DNA of 64,000 nt from Armatimonadota bacterium (GTDB lineage: Bacteria; Sysuimicrobiota; Sysuimicrobiia; Sysuimicrobiales; Humicultoraceae): the NCBI GenBank assembly GCA_037443565.1, contig JBBIOB010000006.1, positions 4,300-68,299 on the forward strand. Reading direction: 5' to 3'. Within the stretch, counting starts at the first letter, position 1, and every line of letters starts with the position of its first letter. The position numbers were made by a program, and so were the translations under genes. A model generated the notes under the pieces. It had not been told where the DNA came from and searched no databases. It was given only the letters and a program-made list of their open reading frames with translations. Shown here in pieces: positions 5,442-12,879 of this stretch.

Positions 5442-6510
5442 GATCGCGCTGCGCGACGTCGCCAAGCGCTACGGTCGGATCGAGGCGGTACGCGGCCTCT
5501 CGTTCGACGTCCGCTCGGGCGAGCTGGTCTGCCTGCTCGGTCCGCCTGGGATGGGCAAGACGACTACGCTGCGGCTGATCGCAGGGCTCGAGCGGCCCGA
5601 TCGCGGCGAGATCCTGATCGACGGGCAGTCCGTCGCCGGGCAGGAACCCGGCCAGCGGGACATCGCCATGGTCTTCGAGGACCTAGCCCTCTACCCGCAC
5701 ATGGAGGGCTTCGACAACATCGCGCACCCGCTGCGCCTGCGCCGTATGCCGATCGAGGAGATCCGGCGAAAGGTCGATCACGTGGCCGACCTCCTGGGAA
5801 TCCCACACCTGCTGGAGCGCCTGCCCCACACCTTCAGCGGCGGGGAGCAGCAGCGGGTCGCCATCGCCCGGGCGATCGTGCGCGAACCCAAGATCCTGCT
5901 GCTGGACCAGCCTCTGTCGAACCTGGACGCCAAGGTGCGCGAGGTCATGATCGGCGAGCTACGGCACCTCCAGCAGCGCACGCGCCAGACTACCATCTAT
6001 GCGACCCACGACTACGAGGAAGCCATGGCGTTGGGCGACCGCATCCTTGTGCTGCGGGAGGGGACGGCCGACCAGATCGGGACGCCGGAGGAGGTCTACG
6101 CCCGGCCGGCGACCACTCTGGCCGCCACCATCACGGGCAGCCCGCCCATGAACCTGATCCCCTGCCGCTTCAGCGGCGGCCTTGCCATGGCCGACGGGTT
6201 CACCATCTCGGCCCCCGGCGCCGAGGGAGAGGGGTTTCTGGGCATCCGCCCGGAGGAGGTGCGCTTGGGCGAGGGGATCCCCGCCGTCGTAGACCTGGTC
6301 CAGCCCCTGGGCCGCAAGAAGATCGTGGAGGTCACCGTCGGGCGCGTGCGGCTCAAGGTCACCGCCGGCCCCGAGTTCGCCGGCCAGCGCGGGGACACGA
6401 CGGCGGTGGCATTCGGCCCCTCCATCGTGCGCATCTACGGTGCGGACGGCCGCCTCTCGGCCACGAGGGCGACCGGACCGCCCTTCCAGCGAGGGGGAAC
6501 GATGGGCTGA
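5422..6510 (+). CDS. ABC transporter ATP-binding protein (MalK-like), Walker-B E-to-Q and Q-loop Q-to-E
   Basis: Walker A GPPGMGKTT; signature FSGGEQQRVAIARA; Walker B ILLLDQP, so the catalytic Glu is replaced by Gln; Q-loop MVFED; D-loop SNLDA; H-loop ATHDY. Overlaps the upstream ATPase gene by 20 nt. Confidence 0.8.
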   Translation: MRRWMAEIALRDVAKRYGRIEAVRGLSFDVRSGELVCLLGPPGMGKTTTLRLIAGLERPDRGEILIDGQSVAGQEPGQRDIAMVFEDLALYPHMEGFDNIAHPLRLRRMPIEEIRRKVDHVADLLGIPHLLERLPHTFSGGEQQRVAIARAIVREPKILLLDQPLSNLDAKVREVMIGELRHLQQRTRQTTIYATHDYEEAMALGDRILVLREGTADQIGTPEEVYARPATTLAATITGSPPMNLIPCRFSGGLAMADGFTISAPGAEGEGFLGIRPEEVRLGEGIPAVVDLVQPLGRKKIVEVTVGRVRLKVTAGPEFAGQRGDTTAVAFGPSIVRIYGADGRLSATRATGPPFQRGGTMG

Positions 6511-6553: not shown

Positions 6554-7471
6554 TTACCTGAGCTTTGATACGTCCACCTGGAAGATGATCGGGAACAACG
6601 TCGACCATCGCAGCCAGCGCTTCGATCCGGCTTCAGACACGGACCAGAGGCGGCCTTCGTCGTCGAACGTGACGTCCTCGATGCCGATGACCACCTCATA
6701 GCGCGCGACGACAGCGCCAGACTTGGGGTCAACCTTCTGTAAGACACCACGCCTGCTGTTGCTGAAGGTCAACCAGAGGTTGCCCTGCCGGTCCACCGTC
6801 GCCCCCTGGCCGTTGACGCCGATGGCGAGAACAGACAGGGCCCGATCTTCCCTGACCGTCCCCCTCCCGTTGAACTCGTCAAACAACTTCAGGCTCACGC
6901 GGTGGAGCCTAGCCTTGCTCGCCTCGTCCTCCGACGAGCCGATCCAGAGATCCGTGCCGTCGAAGGCGGCAAAGGAACCCTTGAGATCACCGCCCAGGCG
7001 TATCGTGCTTTGCAGCGCGTTCTGAGTGTGGCCGTCGTGGAAGGCCCTCTGCACGTCGATCTTGTACAGCCGACGCGTGTCCGATACGACGAGTGAACCG
7101 TCCCTGAGGTACGCCAGTCCGCCGGCGTGCCCGCAGTCGGCCGGCATGTCGAACTGCGCGGTGTAGCGCCCGGAAGTTGGGTCCACCCTGAACACCCGGC
7201 ATGGGCCCGTTGACACATTGGGATCCGTGCTCCGGTACGCTGACATGACGATAGCGCCCTCCACGTACGTGAGACCCTGGGGCACGTAGCCCTCGTCGAG
7301 CCCCGGCGCCCAGATCCGCTTCACGATGGCCTGCTCGTTGGGCACTGACCCCGGACCGGATGCCAGGTAACCCGGTCTTGTGCCCAGGACCTCTGCGGCC
7401 AGGGCGACGAACACCGCAACGAACGTGAGCGACAGAGTGCCCGACAGCGGCAGCCGGGTTCTCGCGTTCAT
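6554..7471 (-). CDS. Secreted or membrane-anchored hypothetical protein, possibly a beta-propeller (glutaminyl-cyclase-like?)
   Basis: 305 aa. N-terminal signal/TM segment (LSLTFVAVFVALAA). GC3-rich. The family assignment is weak. Confidence 0.45.
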   Translation of the reverse strand: MNARTRLPLSGTLSLTFVAVFVALAAEVLGTRPGYLASGPGSVPNEQAIVKRIWAPGLDEGYVPQGLTYVEGAIVMSAYRSTDPNVSTGPCRVFRVDPTSGRYTAQFDMPADCGHAGGLAYLRDGSLVVSDTRRLYKIDVQRAFHDGHTQNALQSTIRLGGDLKGSFAAFDGTDLWIGSSEDEASKARLHRVSLKLFDEFNGRGTVREDRALSVLAIGVNGQGATVDRQGNLWLTFSNSRRGVLQKVDPKSGAVVARYEVVIGIEDVTFDDEGRLWSVSEAGSKRWLRWSTLFPIIFQVDVSKLR

Positions 7472-7657
7472 CGGGTCACCTCATCAGGCAGCCGCACCGG
7501 AATTCGCCCGAAGCCTACTGCCGCCCTCTCTCAGACCGCGTGGGCCTTGGGAGAGACTGTGCGAGCACTTCCGGGATTCCTGACCAACGCTCATCTGGGA
7601 GTACGCTCTGACTCTCGGGGTCCGTGTTCGCGATCGCGATCTGGCAGGGGACTGCAC

Positions 7658-7709
7658 TGGAGCGGGCGATGGGATTTGAACCCACGACCCTCGGCTTGGG
7701 AAGCCGATG
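7658..7709 (-). repeat. 52-nt perfect copy of the 3' part of tRNA-Gly(CCC), from the 3' end to the anticodon loop; an att-like direct repeat or pseudo-tRNA
   Basis: 7658-7709 is identical to 7747-7798. Identity stops exactly where the tRNA 5' half begins; the flanking sequence does not fold as a tRNA. Confidence 0.6.
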
Positions 7710-7746
7710 TTCACCCTGGCCGCTAGAACCCAGTCCTGATGCGGCC

Positions 7747-7823
7747 TGGAGCGGGCGATGGGATTTGAACCCACGACCCTCGGCTTGGGAAGCCGATGCT
7801 CTACCGCTGAGCTACACCCGCTC
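7747..7823 (-). tRNA. tRNA-Gly (anticodon CCC)
   Basis: Reverse complement GAGCGGGTGTAGCTCAGCGGTAGAGCATCGGCTTCCCAAGCCGAGGGTCGTGGGTTCAAATCCCATCGCCCGCTCCA has a 7-bp acceptor stem, D- and T-arms and anticodon loop TTCCCAA. Confidence 0.85.
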
Positions 7824-8881: not shown

Positions 8882-9808
8882 TCACTCTCCGCGCAGGGGT
8901 CGGCCGCAGCGGCTGCAGAAGCGGTCGCCGGGCCGCGCGCGGTAGCCGCAGTGCGCGCAGAACTGTGCCTGGGATGCCGGCCGCCGGCGGTCCCTGCGCG
9001 TCGTCGCATCCGCGCGCGCAGCCGGCCGCAACGCGGGGCCGGCACCTTCGCGCCGCTGCGCCACCCAGAACGCTACCAGGGCTCCAACCCCCAGAACCGC
9101 CAGGACCAGCGCCACCCATCCCCAGGACGAGATCCGTATGGCCGACGATGCCGGCGTGGGTGGACCGGGAGGCGCGGCCGCCCGCGGCAGCGACGGCATC
9201 TCGTCGGCCTTCTCGTAGCTCGCCCTGACCGACCAGACCTGGCCGGCCGGCCAGGATCCCACGGTGTAGAGATGATGGGTGAAGCCCGCCGGGGTGACGG
9301 TCGTGCTCGCGGCCGGAGGATCCAGCACGAGCGCCGACGACCGGAACGGCTGCTCCACGGCGACGCGCATCGCGTTCACCGGGAGCGGGAAGACCAGGTC
9401 CGCGGTGAAGGTGCGCTGCGGGCGGCCCGTGATGAGGTCGGCGTAGTACTCGAACTGGAAGCCCCGCTCCGGCACCGTGAGCGTCACGAGCAGCCGGCCG
9501 CCCTCCTGCCGGTACTGGTAGTCGACCGAGTAGAGCTGCCCGTCGCCGGACCGATAGGCGGCGGCGTTGACCTGGGCGGCTGGGGGAACCGCGAACGTCA
9601 GCGTGTGGGGAACCGGCACCTCGCCGCTCAACTGCCCCCGGTAGATGATCAGCACGCGCGGGTCGTCGTGCTCGGGCCAGACATCGACGTTGAGGACCGC
9701 GATCGACGGGGCCGGTGCCGCCACAACCAGCTGTGCGGGCATCGCCGGATGGCCCACAAGCGCGAGGACCATGGCCGCGATGGGAACGAGCACACGACCG
9801 CTCCGCAT
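8882..9808 (-). CDS. Membrane-anchored protein with a C-terminal double zinc-ribbon
   Basis: N-terminal signal (VLVPIAAMVLALVG), extracytoplasmic domain, a single TM (WGWVALVLAVLGVGALVAFWV), then FCAHCGYRARPGDRFCSRCGRPL (CxxC...CxxC). Confidence 0.55.
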   Translation of the reverse strand: MRSGRVLVPIAAMVLALVGHPAMPAQLVVAAPAPSIAVLNVDVWPEHDDPRVLIIYRGQLSGEVPVPHTLTFAVPPAAQVNAAAYRSGDGQLYSVDYQYRQEGGRLLVTLTVPERGFQFEYYADLITGRPQRTFTADLVFPLPVNAMRVAVEQPFRSSALVLDPPAASTTVTPAGFTHHLYTVGSWPAGQVWSVRASYEKADEMPSLPRAAAPPGPPTPASSAIRISSWGWVALVLAVLGVGALVAFWVAQRREGAGPALRPAARADATTRRDRRRPASQAQFCAHCGYRARPGDRFCSRCGRPLRGE

Positions 9809-10063
9809 AAAGGAGGGATTTCGCGGAAGACCGCCGCATCTCCCACTCGTTGCGCGGGTGTATCCAGACGGGGGTGTGCGATGATGCGCAGGCGTCGTCT
9901 GTCAAACGGCCGGTGCGCCGCGTGGGGGAGGTCAGGGTGGGCACCTTCACGTACTTCTGCAACCGCCATCAGTCCATGCGCGGCGAGGTCGTGGTCAGGG
10001 AGTAGCCCGCCGCTGCTCGGCACCGCGCCGTCAGCGCCGTCTTGCATCGGGCGTGGCGGCGCG

Positions 10064-10090
10064 GTATGATTTTAGTTGAGACTAAATGTT
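10064..10090. promoter_or_regulatory. AT-rich island with an inverted repeat TTAGT-N4-ACTAA; candidate metal-box operator and promoter for the dtxR-like/feoB operon
   Basis: gtatgattttagttgagactaaatg is the only AT-rich stretch within a few hundred bp. It lies about 100 bp upstream of the regulator start and loosely resembles DtxR/IdeR iron boxes. Confidence 0.4.
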
Positions 10091-10177
10091 CGCCGGGGCG
10101 GGGGCCCGACGACGGAGCCTCCGCCTTGAACCATCGAAGACGCCCTCAAGCACGTCCACGATGCCAACCACCGCGGC

Positions 10178-11035
10178 GTGCCCGTGACGCTGGAGTCGCT
10201 CGCCGCACGGCTCGGGCGGCGCACCGGCGCGGTTCTGCGGCTGGTCGAGCGCATGCACGCCGACGGCCTGGTCGAGACCGGTCCTTCGGGCCTGCGGCTC
10301 ACGGCGACCGGCAACGACTGGGCGCTGCAGGTCGTCCGCGCCCACCGCCTGTGGGAGCGCTATCTCTCCGATCAGGCGGGCTGGCCTCTGGCCGACCTTC
10401 ACGCCGAGGCGGACCGCCGCGAGCACTCCCGTCCACCCGGCGAACTGGATGCCCTGGACGCCGGGCTGGGACACCCCCCGCACGACCCGCACGGCGATCC
10501 CATCCCGACGGCATCGGGCGATCTCGAGCGCAAGCCCAGCGTGTCGCTGACACGGTGGCCCGTCGGCGTGCCCGGTGAGATCGCGCACATCGAGGACGAA
10601 CCGGCCGCGGCCTACGAGCAGATCCTGGCGATGGGCCTGCGGCCCGGTGCGCAGATCCGCGTCATCGAATCTACACCCTCGCGGCTGCTGGCCGAGGTGG
10701 ACCTGGCGCAGCACAGCCTGGCGCCGATCGTGGCCGCAGGCGTAGCGGTCAGGCCGGCGGCACACATCCCCACACCCGTAGGCGTGCCCTTGACGGCGCT
10801 CCGCGTCGGCGATCGGGCCACGGTCAGCGCGCTGGACGCCTCCTGCCAGGGTCTGACGCGGCGACGCTTGCTCGACCTTGGGGTCACGCCGGGCGTGACG
10901 ATCGAGGCCGCCCTGCCAAACCCGTTCGGCGACCCGCTCGCCTACCGGGTACGCGGCACGCTGATCGCGCTCCGGAGCGAACAGGCGCAACACGTCATCG
11001 TCGACCCGACCACGATCACGCGCGGAGCGCACTGA
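10178..11035 (+). CDS. DtxR/IdeR-family metal-dependent regulator fused to two FeoA (SH3-like) domains
   Basis: The HTH (VTLESLAARLGRRTGAVLRLVERMHADGLVE) is followed by metal-site residues HAEADRREHS...HGDPIP, then two FeoA-like repeats (VGVPGEIAHIEDEP...IRVIE and LRVGDRATVSALDA...). The same frame is open back to 10130 and encodes helix-1-like IEDALKHVHDANHRG, but with no canonical start there. Confidence 0.7.
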   Translation: MPVTLESLAARLGRRTGAVLRLVERMHADGLVETGPSGLRLTATGNDWALQVVRAHRLWERYLSDQAGWPLADLHAEADRREHSRPPGELDALDAGLGHPPHDPHGDPIPTASGDLERKPSVSLTRWPVGVPGEIAHIEDEPAAAYEQILAMGLRPGAQIRVIESTPSRLLAEVDLAQHSLAPIVAAGVAVRPAAHIPTPVGVPLTALRVGDRATVSALDASCQGLTRRRLLDLGVTPGVTIEAALPNPFGDPLAYRVRGTLIALRSEQAQHVIVDPTTITRGAH

Positions 11036-12879
11036 TGGATCCCGGAGCCCCCCGGACGGCAGCACTGGGGATCCGAACGCCGAACCCGGACTACGTCGTG
11101 GCGCTGGCCGGCAACCCCAACACCGGCAAGAGCACGGTCTTCAACGCGTTGACCGGCCTGCGGCAGCACACCGGCAACTGGCCGGGCAAGACGGTGGCGC
11201 GCGCCGAAGGGGTCCTCGAGCACCGTGGCCGCAAGTACGCGCTGGTCGACCTGCCCGGGACCTACTCCCTGCTCTCGGCGTCGGTCGACGAAGAGATCGC
11301 CCGGGACTTCATCCTGTTCGGCCGGCCCGACTGCACGATCGTCACCCGTCCACGCCGTCTCGAGGTGGGCGCACCGCTGGCCCGGGCCGCGGACGAACTG
11401 GCTGTGATGCTTGACCGGGCGTACCCAGGCCTGCCAAGCGCCAGGTGGATCGGCATGCGGCTGCTCGACGGCGACCAACGCGTGCGTGAGGCGGTGCGCG
11501 GCGGCGCCGACATCCTGGCACGGGCCGACGCCCTGCGCCGCACCCTCGACGGCGCCTTCCGCGATCGGCTCGTCGAGGCAATCTACGCCGAGGCCCAGCG
11601 TATCGCGGCCCGCGCGGTGCGCCAGACTGGACGCGCTCGGGTCGACGCCGACCACTGGGTCGACCGGGTCCTGACCTCGCGCATCTTCGGCCTGCCGATC
11701 ATGCTGGCCACACTCGCGCTGGTCTTCTGGATCACCGTCAGCCTGGCCAACGTCCCCTCCGAGCTGCTGGCGGGGTTCCTCTTCTGGATCGAGGAACAGG
11801 GCGCGGCCGCGTTCGGCCGCCTGGGCGTACCGGCGTGGATTGCCGGCCTGATCTGGCACGGGACGTACCGCGGCCTGGCGTGGGTGGTGTCGGTCATGCT
11901 GCCGCCGATGGCCATCTTCTTCCCGCTGTTCACGATCCTCGAGGACCTGGGCTACCTGCCACGCGTGGCGTTCAACCTGGATCGGCTGTTCCGCCGCGCC
12001 GGCGCGCACGGGAAGCAGGCGCTCACGATGAGCATGGGGTTCGGATGCAACGCCGCGGGCGTGATCGCGACCCGCATCATCGACAGTCCGCGCGAGCGGC
12101 TGATCGCGATCCTCACCAACACGTTCGTGCCGTGCAACGGGCGCTTCCCGACGTTGATCCTGTTGGCCTCGGTCTTCGTCGCCGCCGCCCTGCCGGCACA
12201 CCTCGCCGCCCTCGCCGCCGCCGGGTCGGTCGTACTGGTCGTGCTCATCGGCGTGATCGTCACGCTGGTCGCGTCGTGGGGCATGTCGCGGACGGTCCTG
12301 CGCGGCGAGCCGTCGGCGTTCACGCTCGAGCTGCCGCCGTTCCGCCGGCCCGACGTCATCCGCATCCTCTACACATCGCTGATCGACCGCACGCTGTTCG
12401 TGCTGATGCGGGCGGTCAAGGTGGCCGTCCCGGCCGGGACGATCATCTGGATCCTCGGCAACGTGCCCCTCGGCGGCCGGAGTCTGAGCGCGCTGGCCGC
12501 GGGCCTGCTCGATCCGCTGGGGCGCGCGGTCGGGCTCGACGGCGTGATCATGGCCTTCGTGATCGCGATCCCGGCAAACGAGATCGTCCTGCCGACGGTC
12601 CTGATGGTCTACGCGGGCGCGGGCATGATGATCGGCCCGGAGGGATTCGACAACTTGAGAGATCTGCTCGTCGGCGACCACGGCTGGACGCTGCTGACCG
12701 CGGTGAACCTGATGCTGTTCAGCCTGCTGCACAACCCCTGCGGCACGACGATCTGGACGATCTGGGCCGAGACCCGCAGCCCGCGGTGGACGGCGCTCGG
12801 CGCGCTGGTGCCGCTCGGAGTCGCCTTCGCCGTCACCTTCGCCACGGCGACGCTTGCCCGGATCTTGGGCTGGATCTAG
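11035..12879 (+). CDS. feoB: Ferrous iron transporter FeoB
   Basis: G1 GNPNTGKST and G3 DLPGTYS, then a GDI-like linker and polytopic membrane domain (DRVLTSRIFGLPIMLATL...). The ATG overlaps the regulator's stop (ATGA). Confidence 0.85.
   Translation: MDPGAPRTAALGIRTPNPDYVVALAGNPNTGKSTVFNALTGLRQHTGNWPGKTVARAEGVLEHRGRKYALVDLPGTYSLLSASVDEEIARDFILFGRPDCTIVTRPRRLEVGAPLARAADELAVMLDRAYPGLPSARWIGMRLLDGDQRVREAVRGGADILARADALRRTLDGAFRDRLVEAIYAEAQRIAARAVRQTGRARVDADHWVDRVLTSRIFGLPIMLATLALVFWITVSLANVPSELLAGFLFWIEEQGAAAFGRLGVPAWIAGLIWHGTYRGLAWVVSVMLPPMAIFFPLFTILEDLGYLPRVAFNLDRLFRRAGAHGKQALTMSMGFGCNAAGVIATRIIDSPRERLIAILTNTFVPCNGRFPTLILLASVFVAAALPAHLAALAAAGSVVLVVLIGVIVTLVASWGMSRTVLRGEPSAFTLELPPFRRPDVIRILYTSLIDRTLFVLMRAVKVAVPAGTIIWILGNVPLGGRSLSALAAGLLDPLGRAVGLDGVIMAFVIAIPANEIVLPTVLMVYAGAGMMIGPEGFDNLRDLLVGDHGWTLLTAVNLMLFSLLHNPCGTTIWTIWAETRSPRWTALGALVPLGVAFAVTFATATLARILGWI

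Follow-up and report, generated by a model that had tools for sequence, protein, structure and literature searches.

A DtxR-like, twin-FeoA gene ahead of feoB: a start probably lost by deletion, an operator at the putative promoter and the predicted membrane-tethered family behind them

Why should a reading frame that encodes the first helix of a DtxR-like protein hold no codon at which translation of that helix could begin? The question is raised by a stretch of 64,000 nucleotides (nt) from an Armatimonadota bacterium (contig JBBIOB010000006.1 of assembly GCA_037443565.1; ‘the window’ throughout means this whole stretch), in which a forward-strand open reading frame (ORF) at 10130–11035, a DtxR-like region fused to two FeoA domains, stands directly in front of feoB and behind an AT-rich patch carrying an inverted repeat. 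An earlier note, made from the letters alone, read the locus as a working repressor of the DtxR type that might initiate at a non-canonical codon and control its own promoter. We arrive at a different picture, to which, taken as a whole, we give a probability of about 0.68: the start was lost through a deletion, the inverted repeat is a real operator, and the gene in its present state is probably non-functional.

The gene body, its missing start and the shortened feoB

In the + strand frame of the GTG at 10178–10180, a TGA stop at 10127–10129 is followed by an uninterrupted run from 10130 to the stop codon at 11033–11035, the translation beginning T-IEDALKHVHDANHRG-VPVTLESL.... That this frame is open to 10130 and encodes helix 1, that the ATC at 10133 is the only start-like codon to be found in frame 5' of the helix, and that the GTG is the first canonical start, were all points made by the earlier note, and all are correct. 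Pfam matches to Fe_dep_repr_C (PF02742, the DtxR dimerisation/metal-binding domain; E 2.3e-19) and to FeoA (PF04023, in two stretches; E 2.8e-26) bear out the architecture that it had described, DtxR-like plus two FeoA domains in one polypeptide, as do the two beta-barrels of a predicted structure discussed below. The match to the N-terminal helix-turn-helix (HTH) profile PF01325 is weak (18.9 bits, E 1.8e-3, against a cut-off of 26), its alignment covering profile positions 5–56 of 60 and beginning at the first residue past the stop; the same profile is missing from the precomputed domain lists of 120/120 top homologues. The coupling to feoB also stands in substance, feoB beginning at the gene's own stop (its ATG at 11035 lies 7 nt downstream of a Shine–Dalgarno (SD) sequence, GGAG, at 11024–11027 on the + strand), although the overlap is TGATG, with a single nt shared, and not the ATGA that had been reported.

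Current annotation follows the canonical starts: the Logan gene call begins at the GTG of 10178 (P0121, 285 amino acids (aa)), and the NCBI product (P0001, 283 aa, MTLESL...) starts two codons later, at 10184. A product begun at the GTG would lack the transmembrane (TM) helix seen in relatives, helix 1 and the helix-1 metal ligand; the codon for this last, an Asp at 10139–10141 (+) inside the gene body, is equivalent to the primary-site ligand Asp8 of Bacillus subtilis MntR and to Met10 of DtxR (ligands as given in PMC4805248).

What the frame has lost becomes apparent on comparison with its relatives. A protein search returned 3874 homologues of the same architecture at E <= 0.001, nearly all of them 335–345 aa in length and thus extending some 35–45 residues further N-terminally than anything the window can encode; the extension is made up of a hydrophobic stretch followed by a linker rich in Arg and Trp, which runs into an invariant EDALKH motif. 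The named sources of the nearest homologues are Armatimonadetes, Anaerolineales, Chloroflexota and similar. Closest of all is P0002 (337 aa, 89% identical), encoded on a 160-kb Joint Genome Institute (JGI) contig, L002, which is syntenic with the window through a Zn-ribbon gene (-), the fusion (+), feoB (+), queG (-), a major facilitator superfamily (MFS) gene (-) and a GHMP kinase gene (-). The remaining DtxR-like/twin-FeoA body in the window, 10133–11035 (+), corresponds to residues 38–337 of P0002 and is 88.7% identical to it over 300 aa.

MAFFT and blastn alignments of the two loci agree that every element up to the start is kept, from the promoter and palindrome through the leader to the SD (GGAG) and the TTG itself, and that 104 nt (L002 6007–6110) are absent from the window, five bases past the TTG, leaving a junction at 10131–10132 (+). 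The length of 104 is not divisible by three, and the deletion takes with it ~35 N-terminal codons, those of the TM helix and basic linker; inspection of the alignment by eye revealed no microhomology at the junction. Junction and flanks recur, identically, in the Logan contig L001 (SRR11582161), which was assembled separately. The native TTG (10126–10128, +), which aligns with the called start of P0002, is now out of frame with the gene body, and translation from it yields 150 aa of Arg/Pro-rich nonsense, ending at 10578. The native SD (10114–10117, +), also kept in L002, is placed 8 nt before this TTG and 15 nt before the ATC at 10133.

Helix 1 is thus without a start codon because the 104-nt deletion has put its SD and TTG out of frame: read against the alignments, the missing start is an ordinary deletion lesion, derived relative to every homologue. 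This explanation takes the place of the non-canonical initiation at ATC that the earlier note had implied; the homologues run on for a further ~35–45 residues, and P0002 itself starts at a TTG. We considered the ATC as a true start and set it aside, in view of an SD that is spaced for the TTG and of the longer N-termini of the homologues. A separation of 15 nt is, in our judgement, too distant for good initiation, and ATC is in general a very poor initiator codon. A programmed frameshift from the TTG frame into the gene body was likewise rejected, there being no feature to support one and the relatives having a single continuous ORF.

The neighbouring feoB (11035–12879, +) carries a lesion of its own, which goes unmentioned in the earlier note: 81 codons are missing, in frame, from its G domain. 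The junction lies at 11327–11342 (+), 16 nt that are common to two blastn high-scoring segment pairs whose positions in L002 are shifted by 243 nt relative to each other; in that contig the deletion site is flanked by a short direct repeat, itself imperfect. FeoB is 614 aa long in the window versus 720 aa in L002, and the Pfam FeoB_N profile finds only its positions 2–83 of 156. What remains includes G1 (GNPNTGKS), G3 (DLPG) and the switch regions; the missing 81 residues, retained in every other relative that can be aligned across the region, hold NLMD (the NxxD of G4) and TSA (G5). Outside the deletion the protein is intact, with FeoB_Cyto, Gate (in two stretches) and FeoB_C all found by Pfam and a membrane part ~90% identical to that of L002. 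A further gap of 24 aa (72 nt) was tried as a third lesion and rejected; it falls in a loop of family-wide variable length.

As a side observation, FeoB is split in many related operons into a soluble NFeoB (G plus helical domain, 262–310 aa; a separate 280-aa protein in L203) and a membrane part (442–468 aa; Gate, FeoB_C, Gate), the stop and start codons of the two genes often overlapping. Examples are found at L203 4026–6271, L205 4020–6229 and L207 4032–6158, and also in L003, L009, L016, L021, L023 and L050; in the window and L002 FeoB has the fused form.

The operator, the intact family and the probable reader of the box

Upstream of the leader, the operator-like palindrome TTTAGT-TGAG-ACTAAA occupies 10071–10086, its core TTAG-N6-CTAA (TTAGTTGAGACTAA, 10072–10085) lying in a 44% GC patch within a window of 69% GC and over the predicted transcription start. 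It directly follows a putative promoter (both elements on the + strand), in which a -35 hexamer TTGCAT (10042–10047, read from the sequence and kept in L002) precedes by 17 nt a -10 hexamer TATGAT (10065–10070; TACGAT in L002); the layout is TTGCAT-N17-TATGAT-T-TTAGTTGAGACTAA, with the core 2 nt past the -10. The promoters of L203, L205 and L207 are arranged in the same order but have stronger hexamers, TTGACT/TTGACA-N17-TATAAT/TAAGAT and then directly TTAGxxxxxxCTAA, and it is from comparison with these that we infer a sigma-70-like promoter in the window. The inverted repeat that the earlier note had picked out in this AT-rich patch is confirmed and can be extended at either end to 10071–10086; allowing up to one mismatch, TTAGT-N4-ACTAA matches once in 64 kb, 0.03 matches being expected by chance. 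The copies that might have been met in front of other metal genes were not found within the 64-kb window, the sole region of this genome searched. The palindrome is identical in L002, and lies 106 nt 5' of the GTG at 10178 and 54 nt 5' of the native TTG at 10126.

A wider comparison was possible through a scan of one genome per species, which gave at least 600 matched stretches, 599 of 600 being confirmed as relatives; 80 loci were returned and 57 of these were parsed. The 150-nt regions 5' of the 57 genes contain 18 copies of TTAG-N6-CTAA, spread over 17 loci, or 2.10 per kb, as compared with 0.039 per kb elsewhere in the same loci (357 kb)—an enrichment of ~54-fold; in shuffled upstream regions the mean count is 0.165 and the maximum 3. 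Most of the ‘elsewhere’ copies are themselves found 700–800 nt upstream, in front of a classical DtxR/MntR gene. The published DtxR consensus, TTAGGTTAGCCTAACCTAA, holds two overlapping TTAG-N6-CTAA units (PMC7762939). On its enrichment, placement and conservation, the palindrome is a real, conserved DtxR-family operator at a position typical of a repressor. Of the ‘autoregulatory metal box’ that the earlier note had thought plausible, the DtxR-type operator at the promoter is therefore retained; autoregulation by the fusion is the doubtful part, for reasons given below.

Two observations on the box stand apart from this count. The exact operator 17-mer is found upstream of classical DtxR/MntR-type genes on two unrelated contigs, L201 (reverse complement, ~7043–7080) and L133 (reverse complement, ~1952); among the at least 120 matches listed in the metagenome scan with this 17-mer, these are the 2 that adjoin DtxR-type genes, the rest being probably due to chance, and no further copy of this species' locus was among the matches listed. 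L201 has two tandem boxes (TTAGTCTCAACTAA ... TTAGCCAAGACTAA), followed by a classical gene, a TM-type fusion and feoB. In Acidobacteriota the loci L010, L034 and L059 are without TTAG-N6-CTAA and have another long palindrome, TAATTTTGATTAATCAAAATTA or ATTTTGAnTAATCAAAAT (at -69, -47 and -71 respectively, counted from the gene start, in the place that the box would occupy), which suggests that this clade is controlled by another type of regulator.

Turning to the proteins themselves, the 80 loci come from Chloroflexota, Acidobacteriota, Gemmatimonadota, Ignavibacteriota, Bacteroidota, Verrucomicrobiota, Calditrichota and Actinomycetota, the Bacteroidota carriers including cultivated Maribacter (Maribacter polysiphoniae DSM 23514 is L035). 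In intact members a median of 42–44 residues precedes EDALK(H), and a TM-like segment (19-residue Kyte–Doolittle average >=1.6) is present in 50/57 genomic members and in 94/117 top hits bearing the motif. The median uncharged run is 22 aa, with a net charge of -0.4 before it and of +4.5 in the 20 residues after, for which the positive-inside rule predicts an N-out, C-in topology with the DtxR-like body in the cytoplasm. A minority has no TM helix (P0027, P0050, P0079, P0094, P0096, P0101, P0103 and others; L057, L062 and L071 among the loci); most of these keep a W/R-rich, amphipathic N-terminus of 19 residues (MGLLTWWKKxRxxRRR), and a few have only 7–16 residues before EDALK. By this reading of their N-termini, natural membrane-peripheral or soluble variants exist in the family.

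An AlphaFold2 (AF2) model of P0002, computed from a 36-sequence alignment, has a mean predicted local distance difference test (pLDDT) score of 91.4 and begins with a single continuous helix (residues 4–50); TM segment, linker and DtxR helix 1 are therefore predicted to form one helix. Beyond it the model shows three helices and a wing, and two beta-barrel domains at ~184–245 and 264–327. Foldseek matches the model to MntR (5zr6), IdeR bound to DNA (1u8r), SloR, ScaR and DR2539 at E ~1e-15, with target-normalised TM-scores of 0.87–0.90 to 5zr6 and 8pvt and of 0.69–0.74 to IdeR; in sequence comparison DR2539 is the closest protein of solved structure (E 3.8e-22). Residues 256–328 match the FeoA structures 2k5f (8.7e-8), 7r7b, 2k4y, 2k5l and 3e19, of which 7r7b is the FeoA domain of the Bacteroides fragilis FeoAB fusion. 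The metal site is likewise of the DtxR type: H108, E112, H127, E134 and H135 are invariant, with a spacing identical to that of DtxR H79/E83/H98/E105/H106; position 131, equivalent to DtxR C102, is occupied in the inspected sequences by D, E or H, with E accounting for 74% of the 57 members; D40, which aligns with D8 of B. subtilis MntR, is 95% conserved; and a DPHGDPIP motif is common to the fusion family and to classical DtxR-type proteins. No NCBIfam model reaches its cut-off for the fusion family.

In all 57 of the 57 parsed loci feoB lies directly downstream on the same strand, often overlapping, and in the operons for which gene calls were available (L002, L203, L205 and L207) no separate feoA is called. 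A survey of feo operons found each to have at least one FeoA gene or domain (PMC8749426), and the family protein is hence most simply taken as the operon's FeoA.

Who, then, reads the box? In 16/57 loci the fusion is preceded by a gene for a classical soluble DtxR/MntR (217–244 aa, EDYLKxIY N-terminus), and at least another five loci (L004, L038, L039, L074 and L201) likewise have such a regulator upstream; the next-closest clade after L002 (P0005, P0013, P0012) has the order classical dtxR (220 aa), fusion, NFeoB, FeoB membrane part. Comparison of the two proteins over the 14 loci that have both is instructive: mean column entropy in the recognition helix is 1.17 bits for the classical regulators and 2.14 for the fusions, and in the wing 1.71 and 2.68, whereas in helix 1 the values are 1.46 and 1.05, and in the dimerisation helix 1.17 and 0.85. 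It is in the DNA-reading elements, then, that the fusion is the more variable of the two proteins; in helix 1 and the dimerisation helix it is the less variable. Further, the 16 fusions that stand behind the same type of box have dissimilar third helices, the classical regulators sharing (V/I)xPASVTGM or xxAAxSDM, and the co-operonic classical regulator of L203 (2297–2959) scores 62.9 bits against PF01325, versus 18.9 for the fusion.

Individual DNA contacts tell the same way. The Tyr of EDYLK, which in the DR2539 complex hydrogen-bonds to a DNA phosphate (10.1101/2024.02.12.579695), is Ala in 86% of fusion members, and the positions of the DNA-contacting Arg residues of DtxR are variable or acidic. 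The first six residues of DtxR have to pass from helix to coil if a clash with DNA is to be avoided (PMC7762939); the same region of the fusion is predicted by AF2 to be helical onward to the membrane. With a membrane-anchored family, drifted DNA-reading elements and a separate classical repressor in many of the operons, autoregulation by the fusion is doubtful, and we infer that the box is probably read by a classical repressor, the fusion having another task. No second DtxR paralogue was found in the 64-kb window, and none is adjacent in the window or L002; a reader of the window's box would consequently be encoded elsewhere in the genome.

In outline, then, the segment 10042–12879 forms the front of a feo operon, for uptake of ferrous iron/manganese, and metal-dependent repression would be exerted at the TTAG-N6-CTAA box right after the -10 of a sigma-70-like promoter. 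Transcription would be controlled through this box by a soluble classical DtxR/MntR, encoded at the head of the operon in many relatives and, in this genome, presumably at another site. The family protein (TM helix, basic linker, DtxR-like winged helix, dimerisation/metal domain, SH3-like domain and a second, bona fide FeoA) would serve the transporter as its FeoA subunit, held at the membrane and bearing a cytoplasmic sensor of Fe2+/Mn2+, and would couple the activity or assembly of FeoB to metal status as its C-terminal FeoA engages NFeoB. We offer this tentatively and at rather less than even odds: intact members may be dimeric, membrane-tethered sensors that ‘present’ FeoA to NFeoB and switch transport or assembly off in the metal-replete state, and not transcription factors. 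In the window genome the 104-nt deletion would have disabled the start of such a protein, feoB having separately lost its 81 codons.

Intact members might instead be membrane-tethered repressors that bind TTAG-N6-CTAA themselves and keep the feo promoter at the membrane, with the twin FeoA domains merely ancillary metal-binding modules like those of DtxR and PgMntR, a possibility that we regard as unlikely. The DtxR fold is complete in the model, winged helix included, and the box stands directly upstream of the fusion in 17/41 loci without an adjacent classical regulator; membrane-tethered DNA-binding regulators such as ToxR and CadC do exist. The second FeoA of PgMntR, a soluble twin-FeoA repressor of Porphyromonas gingivalis, is moreover needed for DNA binding (PMC4805248). 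Such a role sits poorly, however, with a helix 3 and wing whose conservation falls ~1 bit per position short of that in the classical regulators of the same loci and whose sequences differ behind the same box, with the substitution of Ala for the Tyr of EDYLK and of variable or acidic residues at the Arg contacts, and with a helix 1 predicted to continue N-terminally in what, for DtxR, is the DNA-clashing conformation; a classical repressor is co-operonic with the fusion in at least 20 loci, and linkage to feoB is absolute.

Age and reality of the lesions

Relative to L002, the ratio of nonsynonymous to synonymous substitution rates (dN/dS) comes to 0.164 in the DtxR-like body and 0.191 in feoB, to be compared with 0.16–0.29 for four neighbouring genes (dS ~0.33–0.37). 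Both feo genes have thus been under normal purifying selection through most of the divergence, and the lesions are recent, or else absent from the real genome. Long-term decay of the operon is rejected, the dN/dS of the feo genes equalling that of their neighbours. Most likely, to judge from the two deletions, the operon of the window has been recently inactivated and now consists of one pseudogene and one crippled transporter.

The second branch of this alternative, that the deletions are artefacts of assembly or consensus, or minority alleles, and that the true genome is either intact like L002 or encodes an in-frame, TM-less protein masked by a 1-nt error, we consider improbable. The source contig does appear to be metagenome-assembled, as are the genomes of the relatives; three length differences fall within 1.4 kb, where 4.7 kb of neighbouring DNA has small gaps only; purifying selection on both feo genes looks normal; and the frame hinges on one base at 10131–10132. 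Set against this, the separate assembly L001 reproduces the exact 104-nt junction with its flanks, clean internal deletions of 104 and 243 nt in unique sequence are, in our judgement, not what short-read assemblers are expected to produce, the feoB junction falls at an imperfect direct repeat of the kind that real slippage or recombination would leave, and the gap of 72 nt among the three falls in a loop of naturally variable length.

Least probable is the reading with which the earlier note began, of a functional soluble DtxR–FeoA–FeoA repressor made from the ATC at 10133 or the GTG at 10178 and autoregulating in the manner of PgMntR: a frame open across helix 1 with all metal ligands intact and a dN/dS of 0.164, the natural occurrence of TM-less members, the lack of another DtxR paralogue in the window and the promoter binding of PgMntR, with its same twin-FeoA architecture (PMC4805248), are outweighed by an SD that lies 8 nt from an out-of-frame TTG and 15 nt from the ATC, by the loss of helix 1 and its Asp ligand from a GTG start, by a 104-nt gap that is derived versus every homologue, by the damage to feoB itself, and by the drift of recognition helix and wing in a family whose box is conserved.

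Several observations nonetheless weigh against the picture of a recently inactivated gene behind an operator read by another protein, and should be held beside it. A generic promoter/terminator scan of 9700–11200 made no call, the window's hexamers matching at 8/12; the TTAG box stands at 23/55 operon fronts only, with a different palindrome in the Acidobacteriota loci; the continuous N-terminal helix is that of a monomer AF2 prediction; and self-regulation may still operate in the window lineage, where a classical regulator is not found nearby, the more so as PgMntR, a twin-FeoA relative, binds its own promoter (PMC4805248). As for the lesions, one base fewer at the CC of 10131–10132 would give an in-frame TTG-AAC-ATC-GAA and a protein beginning (M)NIEDALKH, which would resemble the natural TM-less members of L057, L062 and L071, and the absence of dN/dS relaxation fits a still-functional gene equally well. 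The two assemblies that share the 104-nt junction may stem from one sequencing run, the feoB deletion is known from the window assembly only, and both deletions are known at the level of assembled contigs.

For the window genome the result is mostly corrective, in that the annotated protein of 283–285 aa should be flagged as a pseudogene and its feoB partner lacks half of its GTPase domain; lasting interest attaches to the intact family rather than to this copy of it. The family occurs in at least 600 species from more than eight phyla. The role of FeoA toward FeoB is a long-standing question, and the family makes metal-dependent FeoA feedback on FeoB testable. If the function proposed here is true, Feo would possess a post-translational feedback gate, exapted from a DtxR repressor, alongside which a classical DtxR would look after transcription, and in the family a repressor scaffold would have found a second use in nature, as an allosteric subunit of a transporter. 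The module formed by a -10 element and TTAG-N6-CTAA is also a usable motif for prediction of DtxR/MntR regulons in little-studied phyla.

Some further features of the region may be recorded here. In the 5' untranslated region (5'UTR) a predicted hairpin at 10094–10128 (+) encloses the SD and native TTG (RNA fold -29 kcal/mol, z = -3.7, 0/200 shuffles as stable); the equivalent position in the L002 leader holds a perfect stem of 8 bp, TCGTCGGG...CCCGACGA. Such a hairpin could modulate translation or stabilise the mRNA; a search of 9800–10400 against Rfam for a riboswitch or known leader RNA gave no match at E <= 1. Just 5' of the feo promoter, a short ORF (9850–10005, +) ends in ...VGTFTYFCNRHQSMRGEVVVRE, which resembles the Cys-x2-His-x2-Met copper-site strand at the C-terminus of cupredoxins; Pfam Cupredoxin_1 and Copper-bind match it at E ~0.1 over their last 25 profile positions only, and its 3' part is kept in L002 (~5862–5900). 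The ORF may represent the remains of a gene, or else encode a small protein. Further away, copies of 56 nt that are 98% identical lie at 7657–7712 and 7746–7801, representing a partial duplicate of a tRNA-Gly CCC gene (7747–7821, - strand) at a distance of 89 nt from the intact gene; mobile elements that integrate or excise at a tRNA sometimes leave such a pattern.

Comparison with known systems

The closest characterised system is PgMntR of P. gingivalis (PG1044), described in 2016 as a DtxR protein with twin FeoA domains encoded beside feoB2 (PMC4805248). Like the fusion family it is composed of an HTH, a dimerisation/metal domain and two FeoA domains, in an operon with a FeoB-type transporter, and like the fusion it has Asp at the DtxR Met10 position of the primary site; it binds both Mn2+ and Fe2+. 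Compared by description, it differs in being soluble, with a DNA-binding domain at aa 13–65 and a promoter bound in electrophoretic mobility-shift assays (EMSA), and its DNA binding is abolished on removal of the second FeoA (PMC4805248). The family, for its part, has ~35–45 additional N-terminal residues (TM helix and basic linker), a drifted recognition helix, Ala in place of the conserved Tyr and, frequently, a separate classical repressor; a soluble N-terminus of the PgMntR type is not typical of intact members, the window copy being TM-less through its deletion alone. A survey of Feo evolution goes no further than to mention FeoA sometimes with ‘an additional domain’ or as two FeoA domains (PMC8749426). 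The combination of DtxR with twin FeoA beside feoB is, then, already known from PgMntR, and the headline architecture of the gene is not new; for the membrane anchor, the drifted DNA-reading surface and the frequent co-occurrence with a classical DtxR, no description was found in the literature searched.

Classical DtxR, IdeR and MntR proteins (DR2539, 8pvt/8pw0; MntR, 5zr6; IdeR–DNA, 1u8r) share with the family their fold, ligand spacing, DPHGDPIP motif and SH3-like domain, and the operator type found at fusion operons matches the classical DtxR consensus (TTAG...CTAA). Unlike the family, they have no TM anchor, a single SH3/FeoA domain, and a conserved recognition helix of the PASVT type with a conserved wing.

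Among Feo proteins, the FeoA–FeoB fusion of B. fragilis (PMC8980893) likewise holds an SH3-like FeoA domain tethered near the transporter. There the tether is a covalent fusion to FeoB, where in the family it would be a membrane anchor, the FeoA of the latter being joined to a metal-sensing DtxR-like dimer and not to FeoB. By analogy only, the family may also be set beside FeoC of the Gammaproteobacteria, a winged-helix Feo protein whose partner is NFeoB and whose role is believed to lie in the regulation of transport and not in DNA binding (PMC8749426). FeoC differs in being a monomer of ~80 aa, encoded downstream of feoB and often bearing a Cys-rich cluster site.

In general layout, the family recalls ToxR and CadC, in which a cytoplasmic winged helix is likewise carried on a single TM helix. 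These proteins are non-homologous to it, their winged HTH being N-terminal and of the OmpR type and their sensor periplasmic; in the family it is the TM helix that is N-terminal, with all else predicted to lie in the cytoplasm.

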